The translations under genes were made by a program, and so were the position numbers. The notes beneath the pieces are model-generated. The model saw only the letters and a program-made list of their open reading frames with translations, was not told where the DNA came from and ran no database searches. A stretch of DNA of 62,955 nt, the filler included. It is 6 parts of 6 records of this genome, joined end to end, with 100 filler letters (N's around TTAATTAATTAA, not from the genome) between each part and the next. Parts side by side here need not be neighbours in the genome. Positions count along the whole stretch, not along the records: positions 32,551 to 43,036 come from SRR2962707_5046; 5 more parts are not named here. One strand, 5' to 3'. Positions 32,551-43,036 of the stretch are shown piece by piece (position 1 is the stretch's first letter; each line of letters starts with the position of its first letter).

Positions 32551-32578
32551 TCCCCCTTTGGAGGGGGTTAGGGGGAGG
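32551..32578 (+). repeat. G/C-run palindromic repeat, dispersed copy (AGG-ending variant)
   Basis: TCCCCCTTTGGAGGGGGTTAGGGGGAGG; the contig begins exactly here. Confidence 0.85.
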
Positions 32579-32582
32579 ACAA

Positions 32583-33800
32583 ATGCCTTTTAGACTAGTA
32601 ATAATACTTTTTGTACTGACGCACTCAATAGTTGCTTTTTCTCAGGAGAGTAAGAAGTATCATTACTTGATCAATCATGATTCATCAGAAAACCAGCTTG
32701 TTTTAAAGGGAAGAATACTAGACCAAGACCATCAGGGAGTCCCATTCGTAAATATTGGAATTAGAGGCACACTTTACGGCACAGCTGCAGATGATCAAGG
32801 TTATTTCACACTTAAGCTTCCATCATCACTTGACGATCAGATCATAACTATTTCATGTGTTGGTTTCCAGTCGATGACTTTACCAGTGACTGAACTAAAG
32901 AAGAAATATCAGTTTGTGCTGAATGATGACATTTCTCAATTGGCGGATATTGAAGTAAAATCTGAACGTATTACGGCGAGAGATGTGATCAAGGAAGTAA
33001 TCAGGCGAATTCCGGATAATTACTCGCAAGAGCCATATACTCAGATGAAGCTGTATAGGCAGAAGGTGAAAATTGAAAATGGTGGATTATACATTGCGGA
33101 AAAAATCGAAGAGGTATACGATGACAATGGATATGAATCTTCAGGCATGTATAGCCTAAGAAAAAATGAAAGTTTTAGACTAATTCATCAATGTCGGATT
33201 GGAAAGCTAGATACAACTACAGGAAAAGTGTTGTGGTATAGAAATTATAAAAGAGACTTCCCGACACATACGGCCTGGTCTGACGCAGTTAACGTTAGAT
33301 TCAATAATTTTCTTTCAAATAGTAAATACAAGAAATATGATTTTCAGTTCAATGAACGAGGCTTAACTGGCAAGGACACCATATACATTGATTTCAGTAT
33401 TAATAATCCCGGACACAGAAGCACCACTGCACTTGATCCTTTAAAATTTTCCGGTTCTATCTTGGTAGATGCAAATACTTATGCTGTACTGGAAGTACAG
33501 ACCTTAGCCGTTTTAGATAAGGCAAACATGCTTAAGGCTAAAACATATAGAAGTTATAAAGACAATTCAGAGCCTGTCTGGTGGGAAAAGGAGATTGTCA
33601 AGTACAAAAAAGTAGAAGAATATTATTTTTTGGGTTCATTTCAGCGGTTATCCAATTGGGATCAGAATGCAGACGGCTTTATAGAAATTATTGGTTTGAA
33701 CGTGAGCTCTGGTGAACGAGAAAAGCAAGAAAGTAGCCGAAACCCGCAAGAGGAATACAATCCCAAAAAATGGGAGACATTTATCCAATCCGATCAATGA
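32583..33800 (+). CDS. Exported protein with carboxypeptidase-like regulatory domain
   Basis: Signal peptide; 'GRILD...GVPFVNI...GTAADDQGYF...ISCVGF'. Confidence 0.8.
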   Translation: MPFRLVIILFVLTHSIVAFSQESKKYHYLINHDSSENQLVLKGRILDQDHQGVPFVNIGIRGTLYGTAADDQGYFTLKLPSSLDDQIITISCVGFQSMTLPVTELKKKYQFVLNDDISQLADIEVKSERITARDVIKEVIRRIPDNYSQEPYTQMKLYRQKVKIENGGLYIAEKIEEVYDDNGYESSGMYSLRKNESFRLIHQCRIGKLDTTTGKVLWYRNYKRDFPTHTAWSDAVNVRFNNFLSNSKYKKYDFQFNERGLTGKDTIYIDFSINNPGHRSTTALDPLKFSGSILVDANTYAVLEVQTLAVLDKANMLKAKTYRSYKDNSEPVWWEKEIVKYKKVEEYYFLGSFQRLSNWDQNADGFIEIIGLNVSSGEREKQESSRNPQEEYNPKKWETFIQSDQ

Positions 33801-34462
33801 GCATCAAAATAATCACAACAGAAGACGGCTCCCACAGCTTGTTTGACGAAGAGCTGAACGAAACTTACCACTCCACAAGAGGGGCAAGAGGCGAATCTTT
33901 GCACGTGTTTATCAAGGAAGGCCTGGAGTATTGGTCTTCTCAAAATAAAGTGGATGAAAGCAGCATTCTGGAAGTTGGATTAGGCACAGGACTAAATGCC
34001 TTTCTAACCGCTCAATTTGCGGAGCAACAAAATCAAAAAATTCATTTCGTCTCATTAGAACCTTTTTCAATTCAAAAGGAAATCTATGAGAACCTCAATT
34101 ATTATGAAAGGGATGACGAGCAGCGACTTTTGTTGAACATCCATGAGTCTGATTGGGAAAAAGAAGTGGAGATTTCAAAGAACTTCAAGCTGCATAAAAC
34201 AGCTACAAAACTTGAGCACTTTCTAACTCCAACACTTTTCAACCTTATTTACTTTGACGCATTTGCACCCAGCAAACAACCGGAAATCTGGTCTTTAGAA
34301 AACCTAAAAAAATGTTTTTCACTCCTATCAAAGGGAGGAATACTGACTACCTATTGCGCGCAGGGGCAATTCAAGCGGAATCTTGCTGAGGCGGGATTTG
34401 ACGTTGAAACCCTACAAGGAGCCATGGGCAAGAAGGAGATGGTAAGAGCGGTAAAGCCTTAG
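33797..34462 (+). CDS. mnmD: tRNA mnm5s2U34 methyltransferase MnmD (MnmC N-terminal-like)
   Basis: 'TEDGSHSL...ETYHS..GA..ES.HVF', 'LEVGLGTGLN', 'YFDAFAP'; ATGA overlap with upstream gene. Confidence 0.9.
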   Translation: MSIKIITTEDGSHSLFDEELNETYHSTRGARGESLHVFIKEGLEYWSSQNKVDESSILEVGLGTGLNAFLTAQFAEQQNQKIHFVSLEPFSIQKEIYENLNYYERDDEQRLLLNIHESDWEKEVEISKNFKLHKTATKLEHFLTPTLFNLIYFDAFAPSKQPEIWSLENLKKCFSLLSKGGILTTYCAQGQFKRNLAEAGFDVETLQGAMGKKEMVRAVKP

Positions 34463-35178
34463 CGCCATTTTATGACACTTTCTAACAGATCCTGAATAAA
34501 TTCAGATGAACCGATCGGAAAGCGTAATAATCTTAGTACGACCGTCAACAGTCCAATGATGGTTGCCGGGTGCCTGATTTTTCCAAATCTCATTGCGAAA
34601 AAAAGCAACAATGGAATAAAAATGAGCTCCCCGCTAAGGCCCACCAAAAAGGGCTTGATTCTCTCAGCGGGAACAAATGAGCGCCATAAGACGATCATGC
34701 CTCTTCCCAACCCAGGCATCATTAAATAAAACACACTGCAAATCATCCACCATGCATGTTCTTGTAAGTTTTTTCTATGAATGATTGCTTTCATTACCGC
34801 CAAACCAAAGAGTAGAGCCAGGATGAATTCGATAACCAGGGTTCCGTAAAATAACTGTGGAGGTGGTCCGGGTTGGTCAGGTTGCAAATTTGAAATGATG
34901 CGAAGCGGAACATCAAGTAAGCTTACACTGGTAAAAAGCACACCACCGGCGATTATGAGTCCAAACATCCCGATCAGTCTATGCTTTTCTACACTTTTAA
35001 TGGTAATTAAATATGGCTGGATAATGACCAATAGGAACCAACAAGTAACCAGCCAATAATGAATATGAAACTCCCAGGTTGTGGTGGTGAACTTAGGCCA
35101 ATAGAATCGAAAAATTCCAAGTTGGATTAGCAATAGTGGGATGATCATCCAAACGTGAAGATTCTTAAATTTTTGCAT
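34459..35178 (-). CDS. Hypothetical multi-pass membrane protein
   Basis: About 7 TM helices with spaced His residues (HIHY, KHR, EHAWWM). Confidence 0.75.
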   Translation of the reverse strand: MQKFKNLHVWMIIPLLLIQLGIFRFYWPKFTTTTWEFHIHYWLVTCWFLLVIIQPYLITIKSVEKHRLIGMFGLIIAGGVLFTSVSLLDVPLRIISNLQPDQPGPPPQLFYGTLVIEFILALLFGLAVMKAIIHRKNLQEHAWWMICSVFYLMMPGLGRGMIVLWRSFVPAERIKPFLVGLSGELIFIPLLLFFAMRFGKIRHPATIIGLLTVVLRLLRFPIGSSEFIQDLLESVIKWR

Positions 35179-35336
35179 GGTGAGACTAGGTTAAACATTC
35201 AAGATAATGTGAATTAAGTCAATCTTAAAAGTGAAGTAGAAAATCGATCTGCTAAATTTATCTCTATTGATAAACATTCGATTTTCTAGGCGGCAATAGG
35301 AAATAATAAGGGTCAAAAAATCCATAATTTAGTTAC

Positions 35337-35942
35337 ATGAAATTTACACCCCACTTTTTACTAATCTTTCTCCCTTTACTGTCTTTAAGCCAAACGCAAA
35401 TAACTGATTCCCGAGACAATCAGAGCTATCAGATAGTCAAATTGGAGAACCTCTTCTGGATGGCGGAAAACCTTCGTTTCGAAGCTGAAGGGTCTCTATG
35501 TCTGAAAGATTGTGATCAAATCAGGTTTTATGACTATCTCTACCTGGATGATGTATGTCCAGCAGGTTGGCGGTTACCACGCATGGAAGAATGGGACGTA
35601 TTTACACGGTCATTTGAAGGTGTCGAAAAAGTGCGAATGCTTGAAAATAAATCAGATGCCTATCGAGTAGACTTTCTGGATAAATTCAACATTTTTGAAT
35701 CGAACGTTTTGAATATACGGCCTTACGGAAGAGTCGAGGGAGGCGAACAACTAACCGGACCATTGATTGACTTTTGGACGGTTAATCCTGCCTCAGACGA
35801 ACGATTTCATATGCATCTATCGCCGTATTCAATAGTTGGCCATTCCCATAAGCATCATTTGAAGCCAAAGAAGGAGGAAGATTATCGACTTTTTCCCGTT
35901 CGCTGCGTATGTGAGTCTGAGAAAGTTGAAAGCTCAGACTGA
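35337..35942 (+). CDS. FISUMP (Fibrobacter succinogenes major paralogous) domain protein
   Basis: 'DSRDNQSY...WMAENLR', 'CPAGWRLP..EEW', 'VRCV'. Confidence 0.85.
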   Translation: MKFTPHFLLIFLPLLSLSQTQITDSRDNQSYQIVKLENLFWMAENLRFEAEGSLCLKDCDQIRFYDYLYLDDVCPAGWRLPRMEEWDVFTRSFEGVEKVRMLENKSDAYRVDFLDKFNIFESNVLNIRPYGRVEGGEQLTGPLIDFWTVNPASDERFHMHLSPYSIVGHSHKHHLKPKKEEDYRLFPVRCVCESEKVESSD

Positions 35943-35960
35943 TTGGAATATCTTAGCACA

Positions 35961-38720
35961 ATGTCCGAAAAGAAACTCTTCCTCCTTGATGCCTTTGCAC
36001 TAATCTACCGCGCGCACTTTGCAATGAGCCAAAATCCCAGACTCACGACGAATGGAATCAACACTGGAGCGATTTTGGGCTTTACCAACTCATTGTTGGA
36101 AATCATTACGAAGGAAAAACCCTCACATATCGGGGTGGCTTTTGACACGCATGCACCTACCTTCCGTCACGAAGACTATGCGGAATACAAAGCCACTCGT
36201 CAGGAGCAGCCGGAGGAGATCAAGGTGGCTATTCCTTACTGCAAGGATATTGTGAAGGGGTTTAACATCCCCATTTTGGAAATGGATGGCTATGAGGCGG
36301 ATGACCTGATTGGGACAATTGCCAAGGAAGCGAGCAAAGAGGGTTTTAAAGTGTACATGATGACACCAGATAAGGACTTTGCACAGCTGGTAGATGAAAA
36401 TATTTTTCTCTATAAACCCAAACGGATGGGGAATGGCGTGGAGATTATGGGTATCCCTGAAGTGCTGGAAAAATTTGATATCGACAAGGTAGATCAGGTA
36501 CGAGATGTGCTAGGATTAAAGGGCGACTCGGTGGATAACATTCCGGGGATTCCCGGCATTGGTGACAAGACCGCTTCAAAGCTCCTCAAGGAATTCGGAA
36601 CAGTTGAAGGGATTGTTGCGAATGTGGACAAGCTGAAAGGGGCACAGCAAAAACGGGTAGAGGAGTTTGGCCAGCAAGGCATCATGTCGAAAGAACTGGC
36701 TACCATTAAAATAGATTCACCGATTAAGTTCGATGAAAATGATCTGAAATATGGTGATCCGAATCCGGAAATCCTGAAACCCATCTTTGATGAACTTGAG
36801 TTCAAGACCATTGCCCGACGGGTGTTTCAGGAGGAGAATGAAATCAAGAAAGGCGACACTCAACAGCTGGGCTTGTTTGATTCTACAGGCACTTCGAGTG
36901 AGTCCTCAGACAAGCGATCTTCGATAGAGACTACCGATCACAAATATCATTTGGTTTCGACAACTGATGAGGCCAAAATGCTGGCGGACAAGCTATCTGG
37001 TCAAAAGTCTTTTTGCTTCGATACGGAAACCACCAGTCTGGAGACAAGGGAAGCCAAGTTGGTAGGGATTGCCTTTGCCATAGAAAAAGGAGAGGCCTGG
37101 TATGTGCCTTGCTTTGACAAAGCACAGGAGATTTCTGATATTTTTAAAGGTGTTCTGGAGAATGAAGAGATTGAGAAAATCGGGCAAAATCTGAAGTACG
37201 ACATCCAGGTGATGCGCAATTACGAGGTGAATGTCAAAGGCACCATTTTCGATACCATGCTGGCACACTTCCTGCTCGATCCTGAATCCAACAACAGCAT
37301 GGATTGGCTGGCTGAAAAGTTGTTGAACTATAAGACCATTTCGTTTGAAAATCTGGTTGGCCCGAAAGGGAAAAATCAGAAAACCATCGATCAGATTGAT
37401 CCGGAAAAGGTGAAGGAATATGCCTGTGAGGATGCGGATATCACACTTCAGCTGAAAGAGCTTCTGGAGAAGGACATAGATGAACGAAAATTGCAGCGAC
37501 TACTCCATGAGGTGGAAGAGCCTTTATCCTTTGTGCTTGCTGATATGGAATATCAGGGAGTGAAAGTGGATACGAGTGCTTTGGAAAAAATGTCGAAAGA
37601 GTTGGATGAGCTGAGCCGCAATGTGCAGCAGGAGATTTTTGATATTGCCGGAGTGGAATTCAACATCGGCTCGCCCAAGCAGCTCGGAGAAATTCTGTTC
37701 GATAAGCTGAAAATTGTAGATAAACCGAAGAAGACAAAAACAGGCCAATATGCCACAGGTGAAGATATCCTTTCCAAGCTGGCAGATGAGCACGCCATTG
37801 CAGAGAAGATTTTAACCTTTCGGGAATATCAAAAGCTGAAGTCGACTTATGTGGATGCATTGCCAAAGCTGATCAGCCCGGCGGATGATCGCATCCATAC
37901 GGACTATCGGCAGACGGTGGCTGCAACCGGAAGATTGAGTTCGAATAATCCGAACCTGCAGAATATCCCCATTCGAACGGAAAAGGGACGTGAGATCAGA
38001 AAAGCATTTGTCCCGAGAGACAAGGACTATCTGATCATGGCAGCAGATTATTCTCAGATTGAACTGCGCATCATGGCATCTTTTTCTAAGGACGAGCACA
38101 TGATGCAGGCCTTCAAAGAGGGACGAGATATCCATGCGACCACAGCGTCGAAGGTTTTCGGCGTTGATATCGACAATGTGGAACCGAATATGCGCAGGAA
38201 AGCCAAAGAGGTCAACTTTGGTATCATCTACGGTATCTCTGCTTATGGTCTTTCTCAAAACCTGAATATCTCTCGTGGAGAAGCACAGGAGATCATCGAT
38301 TCCTATTTCAAGGAGTTTCCGAATGTGAAGAAGTACATGGACACCACGATCGAAAAAGCGAAGAAAGATGAATACGTGGAGACCATTTTAGGAAGAAGGA
38401 GGTATTTGAGGAATATCAATTCCAGAAACTTTACCATGCGTGGGTTTGATGAGCGAAACGCCATCAACGCTCCGATTCAGGGAAGTGCTGCAGACATTAT
38501 CAAAATAGCCATGATTGATATCCATCGATGGATGCAAAGGGAGAAACTCCAATCCAAAATGATCATGCAGGTGCATGATGAACTGGTGTTTGACCTACAT
38601 AAGGATGAACAGGAACTTTTGGTTGGTAAGGTGGAAGATTTCATGAAAAATGCACATCCCCTGGAAGTGCCGATGGAAGTGGAAATCGGGATTGGTCAAA
38701 ACTGGCTAGAGGCGCATTAA
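35961..38720 (+). CDS. polA: DNA polymerase I
   Basis: 5' nuclease 'EADD', 'GDSVDNIPG'; exonuclease 'FDTETT'; polymerase 'DYSQIELR', 'NFGIIYG', 'QVHDEL'. ATG at 35961 preferred over TTG 35943. Confidence 0.98.
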   Translation: MSEKKLFLLDAFALIYRAHFAMSQNPRLTTNGINTGAILGFTNSLLEIITKEKPSHIGVAFDTHAPTFRHEDYAEYKATRQEQPEEIKVAIPYCKDIVKGFNIPILEMDGYEADDLIGTIAKEASKEGFKVYMMTPDKDFAQLVDENIFLYKPKRMGNGVEIMGIPEVLEKFDIDKVDQVRDVLGLKGDSVDNIPGIPGIGDKTASKLLKEFGTVEGIVANVDKLKGAQQKRVEEFGQQGIMSKELATIKIDSPIKFDENDLKYGDPNPEILKPIFDELEFKTIARRVFQEENEIKKGDTQQLGLFDSTGTSSESSDKRSSIETTDHKYHLVSTTDEAKMLADKLSGQKSFCFDTETTSLETREAKLVGIAFAIEKGEAWYVPCFDKAQEISDIFKGVLENEEIEKIGQNLKYDIQVMRNYEVNVKGTIFDTMLAHFLLDPESNNSMDWLAEKLLNYKTISFENLVGPKGKNQKTIDQIDPEKVKEYACEDADITLQLKELLEKDIDERKLQRLLHEVEEPLSFVLADMEYQGVKVDTSALEKMSKELDELSRNVQQEIFDIAGVEFNIGSPKQLGEILFDKLKIVDKPKKTKTGQYATGEDILSKLADEHAIAEKILTFREYQKLKSTYVDALPKLISPADDRIHTDYRQTVAATGRLSSNNPNLQNIPIRTEKGREIRKAFVPRDKDYLIMAADYSQIELRIMASFSKDEHMMQAFKEGRDIHATTASKVFGVDIDNVEPNMRRKAKEVNFGIIYGISAYGLSQNLNISRGEAQEIIDSYFKEFPNVKKYMDTTIEKAKKDEYVETILGRRRYLRNINSRNFTMRGFDERNAINAPIQGSAADIIKIAMIDIHRWMQREKLQSKMIMQVHDELVFDLHKDEQELLVGKVEDFMKNAHPLEVPMEVEIGIGQNWLEAH

Positions 38721-38737
38721 TGAGAATAGTTTTTATT

Positions 38738-38764
38738 TCACCCCCCAGCCCCCTCAAGGGGGAA
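38738..38764 (-). repeat. G/C-run palindromic repeat, copy 1 (outer left)
   Basis: TCACCCCCCAGCCCCCTCAAGGGGGAA. Confidence 0.9.
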
Positions 38765-38851
38765 ATTGATTGTCAAAAGGAAAAAATTCTCACATATTCA
38801 TTTGTGACAGATTTGATTAATCGGAGGATATGTGTTTAGAGCAGCACTTTG

Positions 38852-38878
38852 TCCCCCCTTGAGGGGGTTAGGGGGTGA
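38852..38878 (+). repeat. G/C-run palindromic repeat, copy 2 (contains DUF559 stop codon)
   Basis: TCCCCCCTTGAGGGGGTTAGGGGGTGA. Confidence 0.9.
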
Positions 38879-39254
38879 CCTCTCTATCCAAAATCCAATT
38901 TTCAATCGTTCTTACCACATTATTGATATCGGAAAGAACCTCTAAATCTTCAAAACGAATGATGAAGTACCCCATCTCTTTTAACTCTTTCTTCCGTACT
39001 TGATCTTTAGCCGCCACCTCTTCAAACTGATGTGTATATCCATCTACTTCGATGATCAACTCCAATTCCTTACAAAAGAAATCCACAATATAATTTCCAA
39101 TTGGTCTTTGCCTCAAAAAACGGTATTCCATCATCTGCTTTTCTCCGAGCACCTCACGCCACATGACTGTCTCTCCTTTGGTTGGGTTTTTTCTGAGTTT
39201 TCTGGCTAGCTGTTTAAGGTCTTTGTTGTAGTTATTATTGGAATATTTGTTCAT
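38868..39254 (-). CDS. DUF559 / Vsr-like endonuclease-domain protein
   Basis: 'ARKLRKNPT..E..MW', 'FLRQRPIGNYIVDFFC', 'IIEVDGYTH', 'D..R...L...GY.IIRF'; ATG at 39254, 128 aa. Confidence 0.92.
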   Translation of the reverse strand: MNKYSNNNYNKDLKQLARKLRKNPTKGETVMWREVLGEKQMMEYRFLRQRPIGNYIVDFFCKELELIIEVDGYTHQFEEVAAKDQVRKKELKEMGYFIIRFEDLEVLSDINNVVRTIENWILDREVTP

Positions 39255-39256
39255 TT

Positions 39257-39275
39257 TCACCCCCCTCAAGGGGGA
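39257..39275 (-). repeat. G/C-run palindromic repeat, copy 3 (shortened; abuts DUF559 start)
   Basis: TCACCCCCCTCAAGGGGGA; on the minus strand reads TCCCCCTTGAGGGGGGTGA-AA-ATG. Confidence 0.85.
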
Positions 39276-39392
39276 GTTGTATGTATCGTTTCTAGAATAT
39301 GTTTACAGATAAACATAGTTAAACCTGGATTACCTCAAAAGAGATTGTCCACGATTGACCTTTTTATATAGCAATCTTTCAAAAACGCACCC

Positions 39393-39419
39393 TTCCCCCT
39401 CGAGGGGGCTAGGGGGTGA
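39393..39419 (+). repeat. G/C-run palindromic repeat, copy 4 (outer right)
   Basis: TTCCCCCTCGAGGGGGCTAGGGGGTGA; reverse complement matches copy 1 at 25/27 nt. Confidence 0.9.
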
Positions 39420-39443
39420 TGGGATTCATCTATAAATTTGGGT

Positions 39444-40394
39444 ATGCTAACATCTCCGCCCTCCTTCTCAGACATCAAGCGTGCACATCAGCGCATCTCG
39501 CAGTACATCTACAACACACCGGTAATGACCTCTGCCAACCTAGATGAACTGGCAGGATGTCACATGTTTTTCAAGTGCGAAAACTTCCAAAAGGTTGGTG
39601 CTTTTAAAATGCGTGGAGCTTCTAATGCCATCTTTTCTTACCGGCCTGAGGAGAGAGTCAATGGGTTTGCCTGTCATTCTTCAGGGAATCACGGTCAGGC
39701 GGTGGCACTCGCGGCTAAGCTGGCGGGATCCAAAGCCTATGTGGTGATGCCTAAAGGCGCACCAAAGGTCAAGATCGATGCGGTAAAAGGATATGGTGCC
39801 GAGGTGATAGAATGTGAGCCGACGGAGGAATCAAGGGAGTCGACCTGCAATGATGTGATTGAAAAAACAGGCGCGATCCTCATCCATCCTTTTAATGATT
39901 ATAACATCATCGCAGGGCAGGCCACTGCAGCGAAGGAGCTTATAGAGGAGGTGGAAAATCTGGATGCATTAATTGCTCCCGTAGGGGGAGGCGGATTGGC
40001 TTCCGGTATGGCGCTCGTTTCGCATTACCTCAATCCCAATTTGGAGCTGTATGTGGGTGAACCGGAAGAGGTAGATGACTGCTATCAATCATTAAAAAAC
40101 GGGAAAAGGGTGGCGAACAAAACATCTAATACGATTGCAGATGGCTTGAAAGCATCCATTGGCCCAAAGAATTTTGATGTTCTATCAGAGCACATTAAGG
40201 AGGTACTCCTGGTTTCCGAGGCGGAAATTGTACAAGCGATGAAGCTGATCTGGGAGCGCATGAAAATTGTGATTGAGCCATCCTGTGCCGTTCCTTTTGC
40301 GGCGATTTTGAGAAATCCCAAAGTGTTTGAAGGGAAACGTGTGGGAGTCATTCTGACCGGAGGGAACGTAGACCTCACTCAACTCCCATTCTGA
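39444..40394 (+). CDS. PLP-dependent serine/threonine dehydratase (serine racemase-like)
   Basis: 'FKCENFQKVGAFKMRGA', 'HSSGNH', 'PVGGGGL', 'TGGNVD'; no ACT domain. Confidence 0.92.
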   Translation: MLTSPPSFSDIKRAHQRISQYIYNTPVMTSANLDELAGCHMFFKCENFQKVGAFKMRGASNAIFSYRPEERVNGFACHSSGNHGQAVALAAKLAGSKAYVVMPKGAPKVKIDAVKGYGAEVIECEPTEESRESTCNDVIEKTGAILIHPFNDYNIIAGQATAAKELIEEVENLDALIAPVGGGGLASGMALVSHYLNPNLELYVGEPEEVDDCYQSLKNGKRVANKTSNTIADGLKASIGPKNFDVLSEHIKEVLLVSEAEIVQAMKLIWERMKIVIEPSCAVPFAAILRNPKVFEGKRVGVILTGGNVDLTQLPF

Positions 40395-41272
40395 TGTCCA
40401 GAAAAATCTTTGTCATCTGGAATCCCTTTGCCGGGGGTAAAGCACTCAGGATTTGTAAGAAACTATCTGAGAAGCTCAATGACTTAAAAATTGAATATCA
40501 GGTTTTCGATACGAATGAAAGTAAAAGTGCCACAAAAACTGTATCAGAATTCCTTGATGATTCTTTTACTGATTTGATCATCATTGGAGGGGATGGCACC
40601 ATCAATGAATCAGTGAATGGATTGAAATATGATATACCGGTAGCCATTCTTCCTGCAGGCACTGGGGACGACTTCATTAAAAATGTTACGATTGGCCAGA
40701 CACTGGACGAGCAAATTGATACTGCGTTAGAAGGGGAAATCCATCGAATTGATTTGGGTCAATGCAATGATCGTAAGTTCGTCAACGGAGTTGGGATTGG
40801 ATTCGACGGCCAGATCGTGGAAGACATGGAATCAAAACGAGTCCCAATTTTAACCGGACATGCCGCTTATTACTATCATGTCCTTCGCATTTTAGGAGGT
40901 TACCGAGAGCGAAGATTTGATTACCAAATCGATGATCAATCCTTCCAAAAGGATTTGATCCTGCTGACGATCGGCAATGGAACCACGTTTGGAGGTGGAT
41001 TCAAACTGATGCCCGAGGCAAAAGTTGATGATGGGCTACTGGAAATTTGCGAAATCGGCAAAGTGTCCGGGCTGAGAAGGTTTCTGAACATCAATAAACT
41101 CTCTGGTGGAACTCACGGATCGCTGAAGGAAATCAACTTTTATAAGGCAAAATCCGTCAAAGTGGAAGCAAATGATATGCTTTACGCCCATATCGATGGT
41201 GAGCGAATGGGTCAGCCGCCATTTGAGATTAAAGTATTGCAGGAGGCTTTACAGCTGCGAATCAAAAACTAA
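40394..41272 (+). CDS. Diacylglycerol/lipid kinase family (YegS/DgkB-like)
   Basis: 'NPFAGG', 'GGDGTINE', 'PAGTGDDF', 'GIGFDG', 'DDGLLE', 'IDGE'. Confidence 0.92.
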   Translation: MSRKIFVIWNPFAGGKALRICKKLSEKLNDLKIEYQVFDTNESKSATKTVSEFLDDSFTDLIIIGGDGTINESVNGLKYDIPVAILPAGTGDDFIKNVTIGQTLDEQIDTALEGEIHRIDLGQCNDRKFVNGVGIGFDGQIVEDMESKRVPILTGHAAYYYHVLRILGGYRERRFDYQIDDQSFQKDLILLTIGNGTTFGGGFKLMPEAKVDDGLLEICEIGKVSGLRRFLNINKLSGGTHGSLKEINFYKAKSVKVEANDMLYAHIDGERMGQPPFEIKVLQEALQLRIKN

Positions 41273-41276
41273 TATA

Positions 41277-41303
41277 TCCCCCTCTGGAGGGGGTAGGGGG
41301 AGG
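41277..41303 (+). repeat. G/C-run palindromic repeat, dispersed copy (AGG-ending variant)
   Basis: TCCCCCTCTGGAGGGGGTAGGGGGAGG fills most of the 38-nt gap between convergent genes. Confidence 0.85.
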
Positions 41304-41310
41304 TTTTATA

Positions 41311-42093
41311 CTACTTCTTCCTAAACTTCGCCCTTTTCTTAAACCGCAAATAAAGCCACACAGTCACCGCAATCACGCCCAGGCTGATAAATTGTGAGTG
41401 TGATAGCACACCATCGATGATATAGCCTCTTTCTTCGTCACCCCGGAAGATTTCAATGATTCCTCTACCTACCGCGTAAAGGATTATATATATGAAAAAA
41501 AGCTGCCCTTCGAATCGGTTGTGCCGTTTCAGCATGAGCAACACGATAAGAATTCCAAAAATCAATCCGGCAGAATAAAGCTGAGTCGGATGCAGGGGTG
41601 TGTTTAGTGGTTCAGCTTGTGAAATTGGGTCCGTGAACGTCACACCCCATGGCATGTCGGTTGGCACCCCGTGACAGCATCCGGCAAAGAAGCACCCGAT
41701 CCTACCCAGACCATGAATGATACATGCAGCGATCGCCAAACGATCCATCAACGGCCAGAGCGGCCATTTTTCTTTTCGGAAATACCAAACAATGAGCGGC
41801 ACGGCAAAAAGCAATGAACCGTAAAAAACAAATCCTGTTCGGAAGTTTCGTTTCATATTTTCCCACGAGCCAAAATAGAATCCGGGATCCTCCAGGTAGA
41901 AAAAGAGCTTGCCTCCGACGAAAGCAGCGATGATCACCATAATCGCTAGGTTCTGGATTTTATCCTTTTCAATGCCCAGGTCTTTTTTGGCTACATGACT
42001 CATGTACAGAAAGCCAAGAGTAGCACCCACCATGATCATAAAACCATAGGTGTGGATGGTGAAGTCTCCTATTGAAAACAGTTCAGGATGCAT
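41311..42093 (-). CDS. lgt: Prolipoprotein diacylglyceryl transferase
   Basis: 'YG', 'GRIGCFFAGCCHG', 'HPTQLY', 'R..IEIFRGD'. Confidence 0.93.
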   Translation of the reverse strand: MHPELFSIGDFTIHTYGFMIMVGATLGFLYMSHVAKKDLGIEKDKIQNLAIMVIIAAFVGGKLFFYLEDPGFYFGSWENMKRNFRTGFVFYGSLLFAVPLIVWYFRKEKWPLWPLMDRLAIAACIIHGLGRIGCFFAGCCHGVPTDMPWGVTFTDPISQAEPLNTPLHPTQLYSAGLIFGILIVLLMLKRHNRFEGQLFFIYIILYAVGRGIIEIFRGDEERGYIIDGVLSHSQFISLGVIAVTVWLYLRFKKRAKFRKK

Positions 42094-42154
42094 GGTATTT
42101 TAATTACAAATATTAATCGATATGGCACAAGATTTGAGCAATATATTCAAAATT

Positions 42155-42556
42155 ATGACGATGAACCTTTTGAAAATAGTGCTCATTGGAATGCTCCTTG
42201 CGGGATGCAAAGAGGAATCTGAAAATTTACCAGAGAACGAACTTTTAATTAAGTACGAACAAACGATTACTCAGGAAATACGGGGAAAAGACTGGACCAT
42301 TTCATTTACGGATATTGAGGAAAACTCCCTTTGCCCTAAAGATGTAACATGCATTTGGTTGGGACGAATGGTAGTCGGTCTTGAAATTAATGGAGTTGAT
42401 GAACAATTAGGAATCGGTGATTTGACTACCAATGCGGAAGAGGAGATTGCCACTACAGTTGTGGTTGATGGAGTTCTTATAACCCTGGCTGATGCCTACG
42501 ATACGGAGGAAGAATCCACAACCAAAATTAAGTTGATTTTTGAGGAAGCAGATTAA
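42155..42556 (+). CDS. Hypothetical lipoprotein
   Basis: Lipobox LAGC; 'NSLCPKDVTCIWLG' motif. Start could be 42122, 42155 or 42161. Confidence 0.75.
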   Translation: MTMNLLKIVLIGMLLAGCKEESENLPENELLIKYEQTITQEIRGKDWTISFTDIEENSLCPKDVTCIWLGRMVVGLEINGVDEQLGIGDLTTNAEEEIATTVVVDGVLITLADAYDTEEESTTKIKLIFEEAD

Positions 42557-43035
42557 CTTTTAAAAACGGTTTCTTTATTCTCACTGCCATCAAAAACGCG
42601 AATGGCAATTACATCTGCTTCAGCAGTTTTCTCACCATCTACTGAGAGCAAGTCGCATTTAAGTACAGTTTTTCTTCCTTTTACCTCAATGACCCTGGCT
42701 CTCAATTCCACTTCGGTATTGGGTGTCGGTTTCAAGTATTTGACAGTCAGGGTGCCCGTTGCATAACGATACTCCGGATCGGTATCAAGCGACCGTCCTT
42801 CTCGCCTGTATGCATCCGCCATGGCCGTACCCATGCAGTGACAGTCAATGAGAGTGGCCATGATCCCACCATTCATCAGGTTACTCCATCCATGATATTT
42901 TTCTTCAGATTTCCATTTGCAGACAGACTCATCGCCTTCCCAATAGCTTTTGATTTGTAGCCCTTCGTGATTATGTCCGCATCCAAAGCAGACATTTTCG
43001 GGCATGTGATCCTGAAAGTATTTCGACTCGCTCAT
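42553..43035 (-). CDS. PaaI-family hotdog thioesterase
   Basis: 'CFGCG', 'NGGIMATLIDCH', 'VKYLKPTP'. Confidence 0.88.
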   Translation of the reverse strand: MSESKYFQDHMPENVCFGCGHNHEGLQIKSYWEGDESVCKWKSEEKYHGWSNLMNGGIMATLIDCHCMGTAMADAYRREGRSLDTDPEYRYATGTLTVKYLKPTPNTEVELRARVIEVKGRKTVLKCDLLSVDGEKTAEADVIAIRVFDGSENKETVFKS

Positions 43036-43036
43036 T

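Follow-up and report, generated by a model that had tools for sequence, protein, structure and literature searches.

Between polA and the gene of a pyridoxal phosphate-dependent enzyme (PALP), the window analysed in this work (a stretch of 62,955 nt, along which all coordinates are counted) carries a 682-bp unit, at 38738-39419, in which four copies of a short palindromic repeat surround a single small gene of the DUF559 family. What is this unit, and do the gene and the repeats belong together? The unit lies in the part of the window that comes from SRR2962707_5046 (32,551-43,036), and homologues indicate the genus Ekhidna (Bacteroidota). Here we show that the gene and its repeats travel together across Bacteroidota and Balneolota, and that such cassettes occupy many sites, including sites in frame within essential genes, with clean empty alleles in close relatives. 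Gene and repeats are one unit, which has entered many sites over evolutionary time and is polymorphic between close relatives. The reading that we favour on balance is that of a slow-moving selfish cassette, made of a predicted nuclease and having three-block repeats as its ends.

Layout of the focal unit and its nuclease gene

We have defined as R the order TCA, C block, 3 nt, C block, 4-nt loop and G block, and as R' its reverse complement. As reference for close comparison we used genome G001, in which the C-terminus of polA is identical over 299 of 299 amino acids and the flanking DNA is about 95% identical. The features of the locus are the following:

35943-38720, + strand: polA, with five Pfam polymerase and exonuclease domains; its stop codon (38718-38720) is the left edge of the insertion
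38738-38764, + strand: repeat copy 1, the outermost left arm, in R orientation (TCA-C block-N3-C block-loop-G block)
38765-38851, no strand: spacer of the left doublet, 87 nt, unrelated to the spacer of the closest genome, G001
38852-38878, - strand: repeat copy 2, R on the gene's strand, covering the last codons and the stop of the DUF559 gene
38868-39254, - strand: DUF559 gene, 128 aa, Vsr-fold, PD-(D/E)XK, with a PF04480 match
39257-39275, + strand: repeat copy 3, shortened by 7 bases compared with relatives; R' 2 nt before the ATG on the gene's strand
39276-39392, no strand: A+T-rich spacer of 117 nt upstream of the gene, 84-98% conserved compared with G001
39393-39419, - strand: repeat copy 4, the outermost right arm, inverted partner of copy 1
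39438-40394, + strand: gene of the pyridoxal phosphate-dependent enzyme (Pfam PALP), the right edge of the insertion

A first-pass annotation of this DNA had reported four repeat copies, an inverted pair of 27 nt formed by the outermost ones, and a 128-aa DUF559 protein with an apparently intact motif as the only product of the unit; all three claims were borne out. Read in the direction of the gene, the unit consists of R (39419-39393), 117 nt, R' (39275-39257), 2 nt, ATG, gene, R (38878-38852), 87 nt and R' (38764-38738), and about 700 bases separate the polA stop from the PALP gene. The outer arms (38738-38764 and 39393-39419) are 27 nt long and 93% complementary, those of the left doublet (38738-38762 and 38854-38878) 25 nt and 92%, at 91 nt from each other, and those of the right doublet (39261-39275 and 39394-39408) 15 nt and 93%, at 118 nt. 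Copies 2 and 4 read C5-N4-G5-N3-G5, the three-block layout of the BoxC/PIT/triplex-motif (TM) repeats. Allowing up to one mismatch, the core CCCCCTNNAGGGGG gave five matches in the window, four of them exact and within the unit and one at 41280, against 0.05 expected from shuffles (0 of 100 shuffles reached five). Save for that related copy at 41280, the focal subtype is absent from the rest of the 63-kb window, and a looser scan of the window found no second DUF559 open reading frame (ORF).

The repeats also reach into the gene itself, whose stop codon lies inside copy 2, the protein ending in ...EVTP*. Since the gene is antisense to both neighbours, the 117-nt spacer is the likely site of its own promoter. 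Folded as one strand with ViennaRNA, which models hairpins only and no triplex, the left doublet gave -32.7 kcal/mol (z -5.7 compared with shuffles). Searching 38000-40000 against Rfam at a permissive threshold returned four matches, all of them far below the gathering scores, and no family fits.

Hardly any function has been tested in the very large DUF559 family. The product of 38868-39254 matches PF04480 with an E-value of 6.1e-30 (103.7 bits, compared with a cut-off of 20.6), and residues D58, E69, D71 and H75 do not vary among 27 aligned homologues. Besides PF04480, Pfam gave only a sub-threshold match to PF18741, and its Vsr model does not match the protein. A family profile matched PDB entry 3hrl, a structural-genomics protein (E 2.2e-25), and the catalytic domain of the homing endonuclease I-Bth0305I (3r3p, E 8.7e-7); Table 1 of a review (PMC3424549) groups Vsr, DUF559 and I-Bth0305I in one clade of PD-(D/E)XK nucleases. 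The ratio of non-synonymous to synonymous divergence (dN/dS) of the gene was 0.02-0.04 against three intact orthologues; purifying selection keeps the predicted nuclease of this window. Synonymous divergence (dS) from G001 was 0.55, around 2-fold that of polA (0.25) and PALP (0.19), with few synonymous sites counted, and two of the six orthologues at the polA site are frameshifted. Two other assignments were rejected: the protein is no equivalog of E. coli YcjD (NCBIfam PRK09767, 57 bits compared with a cut-off of 218), and there is no case for a defence system, with only weak PADLOC matches (HEase 4.5e-5, mREase_II 2.9e-4).

Gene-repeat pairing across Bacteroidota and Balneolota

A scan of one genome per species gave 495 confirmed relatives of the protein, and 79 loci were kept for repeat statistics. 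Using a strict pattern, R' ended at most 150 nt upstream of the DUF559 gene in 55 of the 79 loci, R lay over or just past its stop in 53, and both were present in 43. The background in the same loci was 27 matches in 341 kb (0.08 per kb), so that the enrichment of flanking repeats around DUF559 homologues predicted in the first-pass annotation was indeed found. Several of the loci missed by the strict pattern keep the layout with other blocks, such as CCCTCC/GGGAGG/GGTGGG in L007. The commonest layout is R'-gene-R, and the R-R'-gene-R-R' layout of the window recurs in L001 and L073. Because the repeats overlap the ends of the gene, many DUF559 proteins in the databases have HPPxPSRGG or VTP at the C-terminus and LKGGRG-like extensions at the N-terminus.

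Loop sequences vary between clades and agree between both ends of one locus. Ends of the same locus scored 0.666, compared with 0.535 for ends of different loci (a value reached in 0 of 5000 permutations), which shows that both ends of a locus are kept alike. In the co-variation test that had been suggested, repeat similarity followed protein identity (Mantel r 0.458, reached in 0 of 2000 permutations), a correlation that could come from shared descent alone.

Some loci present variations of this layout. In Balneolaceae (L012, L018, L022, L026, L027 and L030) hemE and hemF flank the cassette. The frame of hemE continues into the upstream repeat, and that of DUF559 crosses the downstream repeat (HPPAPPSKGD) without a stop and enters hemF. 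In that case, HemF would be produced either as a fusion protein or by internal initiation of translation. L103 and L104 (G003, Pedobacter) and L014 have a single DUF559 gene with tandem arrays on either side, in which a unit of repeat and spacer recurs every 134-143 nt, the spacers of successive units being alike in L014. A six-copy tandem array was found elsewhere without the gene.

Six Ekhidna genomes gave 5-10 PF04480 matches each, and the seven DUF559 copies of G001 are diverged and carry different repeat subtypes. The full three-block pattern gave 24, 30 and 16 matches in three genomes, and a reversed control pattern none in any of the three. The arms of the focal subtype matched in all five Ekhidna genomes searched, with 9-17 matches per genome on both strands. 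Related copies had been expected to be dispersed, and they were found in genomes both as solos and as doublets. Around 16 of the three-block matches of G001 are solitary intergenic copies of several subtypes, and one of these solo sites is occupied in only 1 of the 24 other genomes of the genus with both flanks resolved. Single units are hence gained as well, at new sites. The window has two solo repeats of its own:

32552-32575, - strand: solo repeat of another subtype (loop TTTGGA), from the looser repeat scan
41278-41300, - strand: solo repeat, again not of the focal subtype (loop TCTGGA, end GGGGGAGG), in the gap where two genes converge

The subtype of the copy at 41278-41300 is also present as solos in G001. 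The window includes several short masked (N) stretches, and the copy at 32552-32575 directly adjoins one of them.

We then compared the strict C5 pattern with PF04480 in 151 genomes of the order. The pattern was present in 46 of them and DUF559 in 60, with a 2x2 tally (both, gene alone, repeat alone, neither) of 32/28/14/77. This gives an odds ratio of 6.3 (Fisher p 1.5e-6, uncorrected for kinship). Among the 23 genomes with at least 10 repeat matches, 19 have a DUF559 gene. The proposal that repeat abundance depends on the gene was therefore upheld as an association, and it did not hold for four genomes that carry 11-436 repeats and no DUF559.

Occupied, solo-repeat and empty sites

Empty polA junctions in relatives were sought, as the first-pass annotation had suggested, and they were found. 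Among 29 Ekhidna genomes with a polA match, eight have an empty polA|PALP spacer of 7-8 nt and five carry the DUF559 cassette at this junction. Spacers of 58-98 nt are present in six, one of them with a solo full R and one with a bare hairpin; four have other inserts of 559-661 nt, and in six the PALP gene is not downstream of polA in the sequence covered. The spacers of G207, G214 and G208, of 7 nt and 89 nt, are too short for a DUF559 gene. In other genera of the family, 7 of 29 genomes keep polA and PALP together, 14-114 nt apart, with neither repeat nor DUF559. The 682-bp unit is a cassette inserted into the 7-8-nt polA|PALP spacer within the genus. Contigs of four metagenome DNA runs gave no cassette-free junction, a result that is uninformative.

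The same junction receives other modules. A YefM/YoeB toxin-antitoxin pair fills the 7-8-nt spacer in three Ekhidna genomes (Pfam E 1e-21 to 3e-40; L219, L222 and L229 among the loci), a fourth has a 637-nt insert with another ORF, and G218 shows an extra 240-aa ORF beside a decayed cassette. The polA|PALP junction (38718-39440) is a hot spot for small selfish modules.

Occupied alleles differ from each other in their repeats and spacers. The 87-nt spacer of the left doublet is 44-54% identical between the window and G001, compared with about 95% in the surroundings. A 141-nt query containing both arms and the spacer matched the polA locus of G004 at 74%, the spacer allele of the window resembling that of G004, and both alleles occur in metagenome contigs. 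We rejected this spacer as a dispersed repeat: beyond the same-locus match in G004, only the repeat arms matched elsewhere. The 7 bases that copy 3 of the window lacks (CCCCCAG) are present in G001 and in one metagenome contig. Copies 2 and 4 (38854-38878 and 39395-39419) vary at two letters, one in the loop (T/C) and one in the spacer (T/C), and these are exactly swapped between the window and G001 (L144), which would fit an excision and re-entry via direct repeats, or two gene conversions.

Many cassettes sit inside other genes. In the 151 genomes of the order, 43 of the 89 PF04480 matches with an E-value of at most 1e-19 lie in open frames of at least 350 aa. Seventeen of these frames were identified by Pfam: three leucyl-tRNA synthetases (LeuRS), one isoleucyl-tRNA synthetase (IleRS), four MetH (with the insert at three positions), two methylmalonyl-CoA mutases, one MurF-Alr, two GATase_5 proteins, one UvrD and three Eco57I-type methylases. 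Pfam found no intein domain in the 17 frames and the host ORFs read through without a stop; intron RNA was not searched for there.

In the LeuRS of G001, an in-frame DUF559 copy lies between peptides translated from R and R' (LTPNPSPMERG ... SPPSPSGKGSGDGA). G005 carries the same insert, and the site is occupied in three more genomes of the order. It is empty in G002, G004, G006 and G007, where the sequence is GAEIDF-DIEDSEE-KIRVFTT, or nearly so, and contains nothing of the repeat. The host part of the G001 LeuRS is nearer to the empty alleles (83-90%) than to G005 (75%). This pattern fits an old vertical insert with clean loss or allele replacement, and it fits homing equally well. Another copy, sharing the reading frame of trpF, occupies the trpC|trpF junction; here three genomes are empty (with an overlapping ATGA junction), two have the cassette and one a gene-less doublet of another subtype. 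In G005, the trp cassette is flanked by direct copies of the whole R.

G001 and G005 share three insertions, namely those in LeuRS and trpC|trpF and one solo repeat. The flanks of G001 are nearer to G004/G006 at two of these three loci and nearer to G005 at the third (92% compared with 75%). Such mixed affinities may reflect recombination among lineages or a mixed assembly.

Known systems and competing explanations

BoxC/PIT/TM repeats are an orphan family known since the 1990s. They had no known origin, partner or function, and the pairing described here offers a candidate partner enzyme. The TMECO consensus is CCCTCNCCC N3-6 GGGNGAGGG N3 GGGNGAGGG, with 23 copies in MG1655, always intergenic, that form a stable triplex in vitro (Holder et al. 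2015, PMC4666352). The accessible part of that paper describes no mobility gene or common flanking gene near the repeats, and it mentions neither an endonuclease nor DUF559. The Ekhidna repeats share with this class the order of a pyrimidine block, a loop of 3-6, a purine block, a loop of 3 and a second purine block, as well as the dispersed, low-copy intergenic copies. In copy 2, C5-TTGA-G5-TTA-G5, the second loop (TTA) is the same as in TMECO type A. Their blocks, unlike those of TMECO, are 5-nt homopolymers rather than CCCTCNCCC (the exact TMECO consensus has no match in the window), and, unlike BoxC/PIT/TM repeats as published, they frame a predicted nuclease gene and also sit inside ORFs. 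Of the 38 informative repeat types in 173 loci, 25 have a third block that fits better as a mirror of the hairpin's purine arm, nine have one that fits better as a direct copy, and four are ties; the types are related to each other. This mirror preference fits a triplex geometry.

The locus had originally been taken as an analogue of the systems formed by repetitive extragenic palindromic (REP) sequences, their inverted doublets (REPINs) and REP-associated tyrosine transposases (RAYTs). This analogy stands as regards the orientation-specific flanking inverted repeats: as in REP/REPIN-RAYT systems, a chromosomal gene is flanked by its own short palindromic repeat, related copies are dispersed as singlets and inverted doublets (those of G026 are tight, REPIN-like and at a constant 42-nt offset), and vertical persistence is long. 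It fails in other respects. Pfam finds no HUH (Y1) tyrosine transposase here and the enzyme is of the PD-(D/E)XK Vsr-fold type; the repeat has a third mirror block; the four genomes with 11-436 repeats lack a DUF559 match; and the gene reaches 5-10 copies per Ekhidna genome, with copies in frame inside genes, unlike RAYTs, which are described as single-copy and vertically inherited in the consulted portions of Bertels and Rainey (2011, PMC3116915) and later work.

Other systems resemble the cassette in part. Its catalytic domain is homologous to that of the EDxHD/Vsr-like homing endonuclease I-Bth0305I, and, as for homing endonuclease genes, the same site is occupied or empty among relatives (LeuRS, trpC|trpF and polA|PALP). 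Unlike I-Bth0305I-type enzymes, however, it has no intron or intein carrier, the host ORF reading straight through, and no extra DNA-binding region, and inverted repeats flank its gene. Rickettsia palindromic elements (RPEs) are, according to the part of the source available (PMC10969869), found in frame in unrelated metabolic genes, where they add a peptide and leave the protein intact. The cassette shares with them this in-frame insertion without destruction of the host protein, but RPEs have no known enzyme of their own, whereas here a full predicted nuclease domain lies between the arms. Compared with transposons of the insertion sequence or miniature inverted-repeat transposable element (MITE) type, the inverted ends are present, with no clear target-site duplication.

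The mechanism that we propose for a selfish cassette would start with the nuclease acting on a non-B structure (hairpin, cruciform or intrastrand triplex) of its own repeats, or on sites carrying them. The break might be healed by copying of the cassette, in a homing-like manner, or by cut-and-rejoin, and solo repeats and gene-less doublets would be its non-autonomous relatives. Repeats that encode Pro/Gly-rich linkers would allow the cassette to sit in frame and spare the host protein. Movement would be rare and inheritance mostly vertical. A bolder proposal, which we put forward tentatively and with clearly less confidence, is that BoxC/PIT/TM repeats are the cis-acting ends of an unrecognised class of mobile elements, whose sole enzyme would be a Vsr-fold nuclease of around 110 residues that reads non-B DNA instead of sequence, and which would reside in frame without splicing by means of flexible linker ends.

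Several observations weigh against a selfish cassette. Near-identical cassettes at different sites of one genome were not seen, the paralogues seen being diverged, and neither a target-site duplication nor a defined cut site could be recognised, with fuzzy edges at the trp and polA sites. In LeuRS, the identity of the insert follows that of the host (82/73, 75/61 and about 60/40-50). Genomes G141 (436 repeats), G025 (62), G077 (48) and G080 (11) have no DUF559 by either the Pfam model or the family profile; because such genomes lack the gene, the repeats persist without it and perhaps even spread. Conversely, 28 of the 60 DUF559-positive genomes of the order have no strict C5 match. The gene was found in 2 of 50,697 phage records and in 37 of 72,556 plasmid records, mostly very large replicons; its near-absence from phages and its rarity on plasmids are unlike what is seen for many homing endonuclease genes. 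Finally, the computed folding of a lone repeat arm does not surpass that of its shuffles (z -0.4 to -1.2), so that no argument can be built on hairpin stability by itself.

One could argue that DUF559 is a domesticated host nuclease that resolves repeat hairpins or triplexes, for instance at stalled forks, with repeats that spread by other means and a gene that is regulated by them or has co-evolved with them. A structure-processing nuclease kept by the host is the main rival explanation, although we consider it unlikely. It would account for the strong purifying selection, the mostly vertical descent seen in LeuRS, the chromosomal residence with rare phage and plasmid copies, and the genomes with hundreds of repeats and no gene or one (G141, G099), and it would parallel the published single-copy, vertical inheritance of RAYTs. 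A host enzyme does not explain as readily why each Ekhidna genome has 5-10 diverged copies, each with its own repeat subtype, why copies lie in frame inside unrelated essential genes, why some are frameshifted, or why presence at the same site differs between congeners. More ordinary host functions fare worse. The least probable of all is that the protein is a standard Vsr-type T:G mismatch repair nuclease that partners a cytosine-5 methyltransferase, with incidental repeats. The Vsr fold would agree with this, as would the Caulobacter DUF559 protein VsrA, which is functionally tied to a solitary C5 methyltransferase in the portion of the report that covers it (PMC12907096). Yet the gene neighbours are polA and PALP and no methyltransferase, and DUF559 alone matches the protein among these Pfam models. 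Furthermore, all five Ekhidna genomes compared have DUF559, with 5-10 matches each, and PF00145 was found in only two of them, being absent from the matches of G004, G006 and G007, which have 10, 8 and 5 DUF559 matches, respectively.

It is improbable that gene and repeats lack any functional link, and that junctions with small non-essential genes are simply hot spots where MITE-like repeats pile up. The YefM/YoeB pairs and the other ORF at polA|PALP are what such a hot spot would produce, solo repeats do occur at many intergenic sites, and more rearrangement has been reported near such motifs in the accessible text of Holder et al. (2015, PMC4666352). The repeat of fixed orientation at gene start and stop in most of the 79 loci, over two phyla, speaks against mere accumulation, as do the match between the two ends of a locus and the recurrence of the same layout inside host ORFs. 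Slightly more doubtful still is an RNA device, in which inverted repeats in the 5' leader and at the 3' end of the mRNA, paired or folded into hairpins, would make the DUF559 transcript more stable or control its translation. The placement of copy 3, 2 nt upstream of the start codon, and of copy 2, over the stop codon, would suit such a device, and the left doublet folds well beyond its shuffles. Solos, gene-less doublets and in-frame copies without transcript ends of their own are left unexplained by it, no Rfam family reaches threshold, and PIT elements are reported to have no terminator or promoter activity (PMC4666352, in the part consulted).

Both the repeat class and the protein family are in print, but their pairing was not found in print: we found no paper linking DUF559 or YcjD with flanking repeats, subscription journals lying outside the search. 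Their conserved pairing leads to a concrete hypothesis, that the repeat is the substrate of the nuclease, and the window adds a genus in which empty, solo-repeat and occupied alleles form a well-resolved series. If a selfish cassette is the right reading, LeuRS, IleRS, MetH and methylmalonyl-CoA mutase would be examples of essential proteins that house selfish nuclease domains in frame, with neither an intein nor an intron. A nuclease recognising DNA by its shape could also be a useful reagent.

The E. coli K-12 genome gives a further case of proximity between both partners. A 30-kb region around ycjD, an annotated DUF559 gene, has a single exact TMECO match, 168 nt downstream of that gene, and the final codons of ycjD (RSPSP*) fall within a C-block/G-block hairpin. 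Given 23 copies in a genome, a TMECO copy would lie within 300 nt of a given point with a probability of around 0.003. In other E. coli lineages, the place of ycjD is taken by the eefRABCD operon, as stated in the available part of a 2026 paper (PMC12817139). The last 50 nt or so of ycjD recur in degenerate form about 60 nt downstream (L174, 16240-16420), and beyond this degenerate copy come a decayed G-block and, after it, the exact TMECO repeat.

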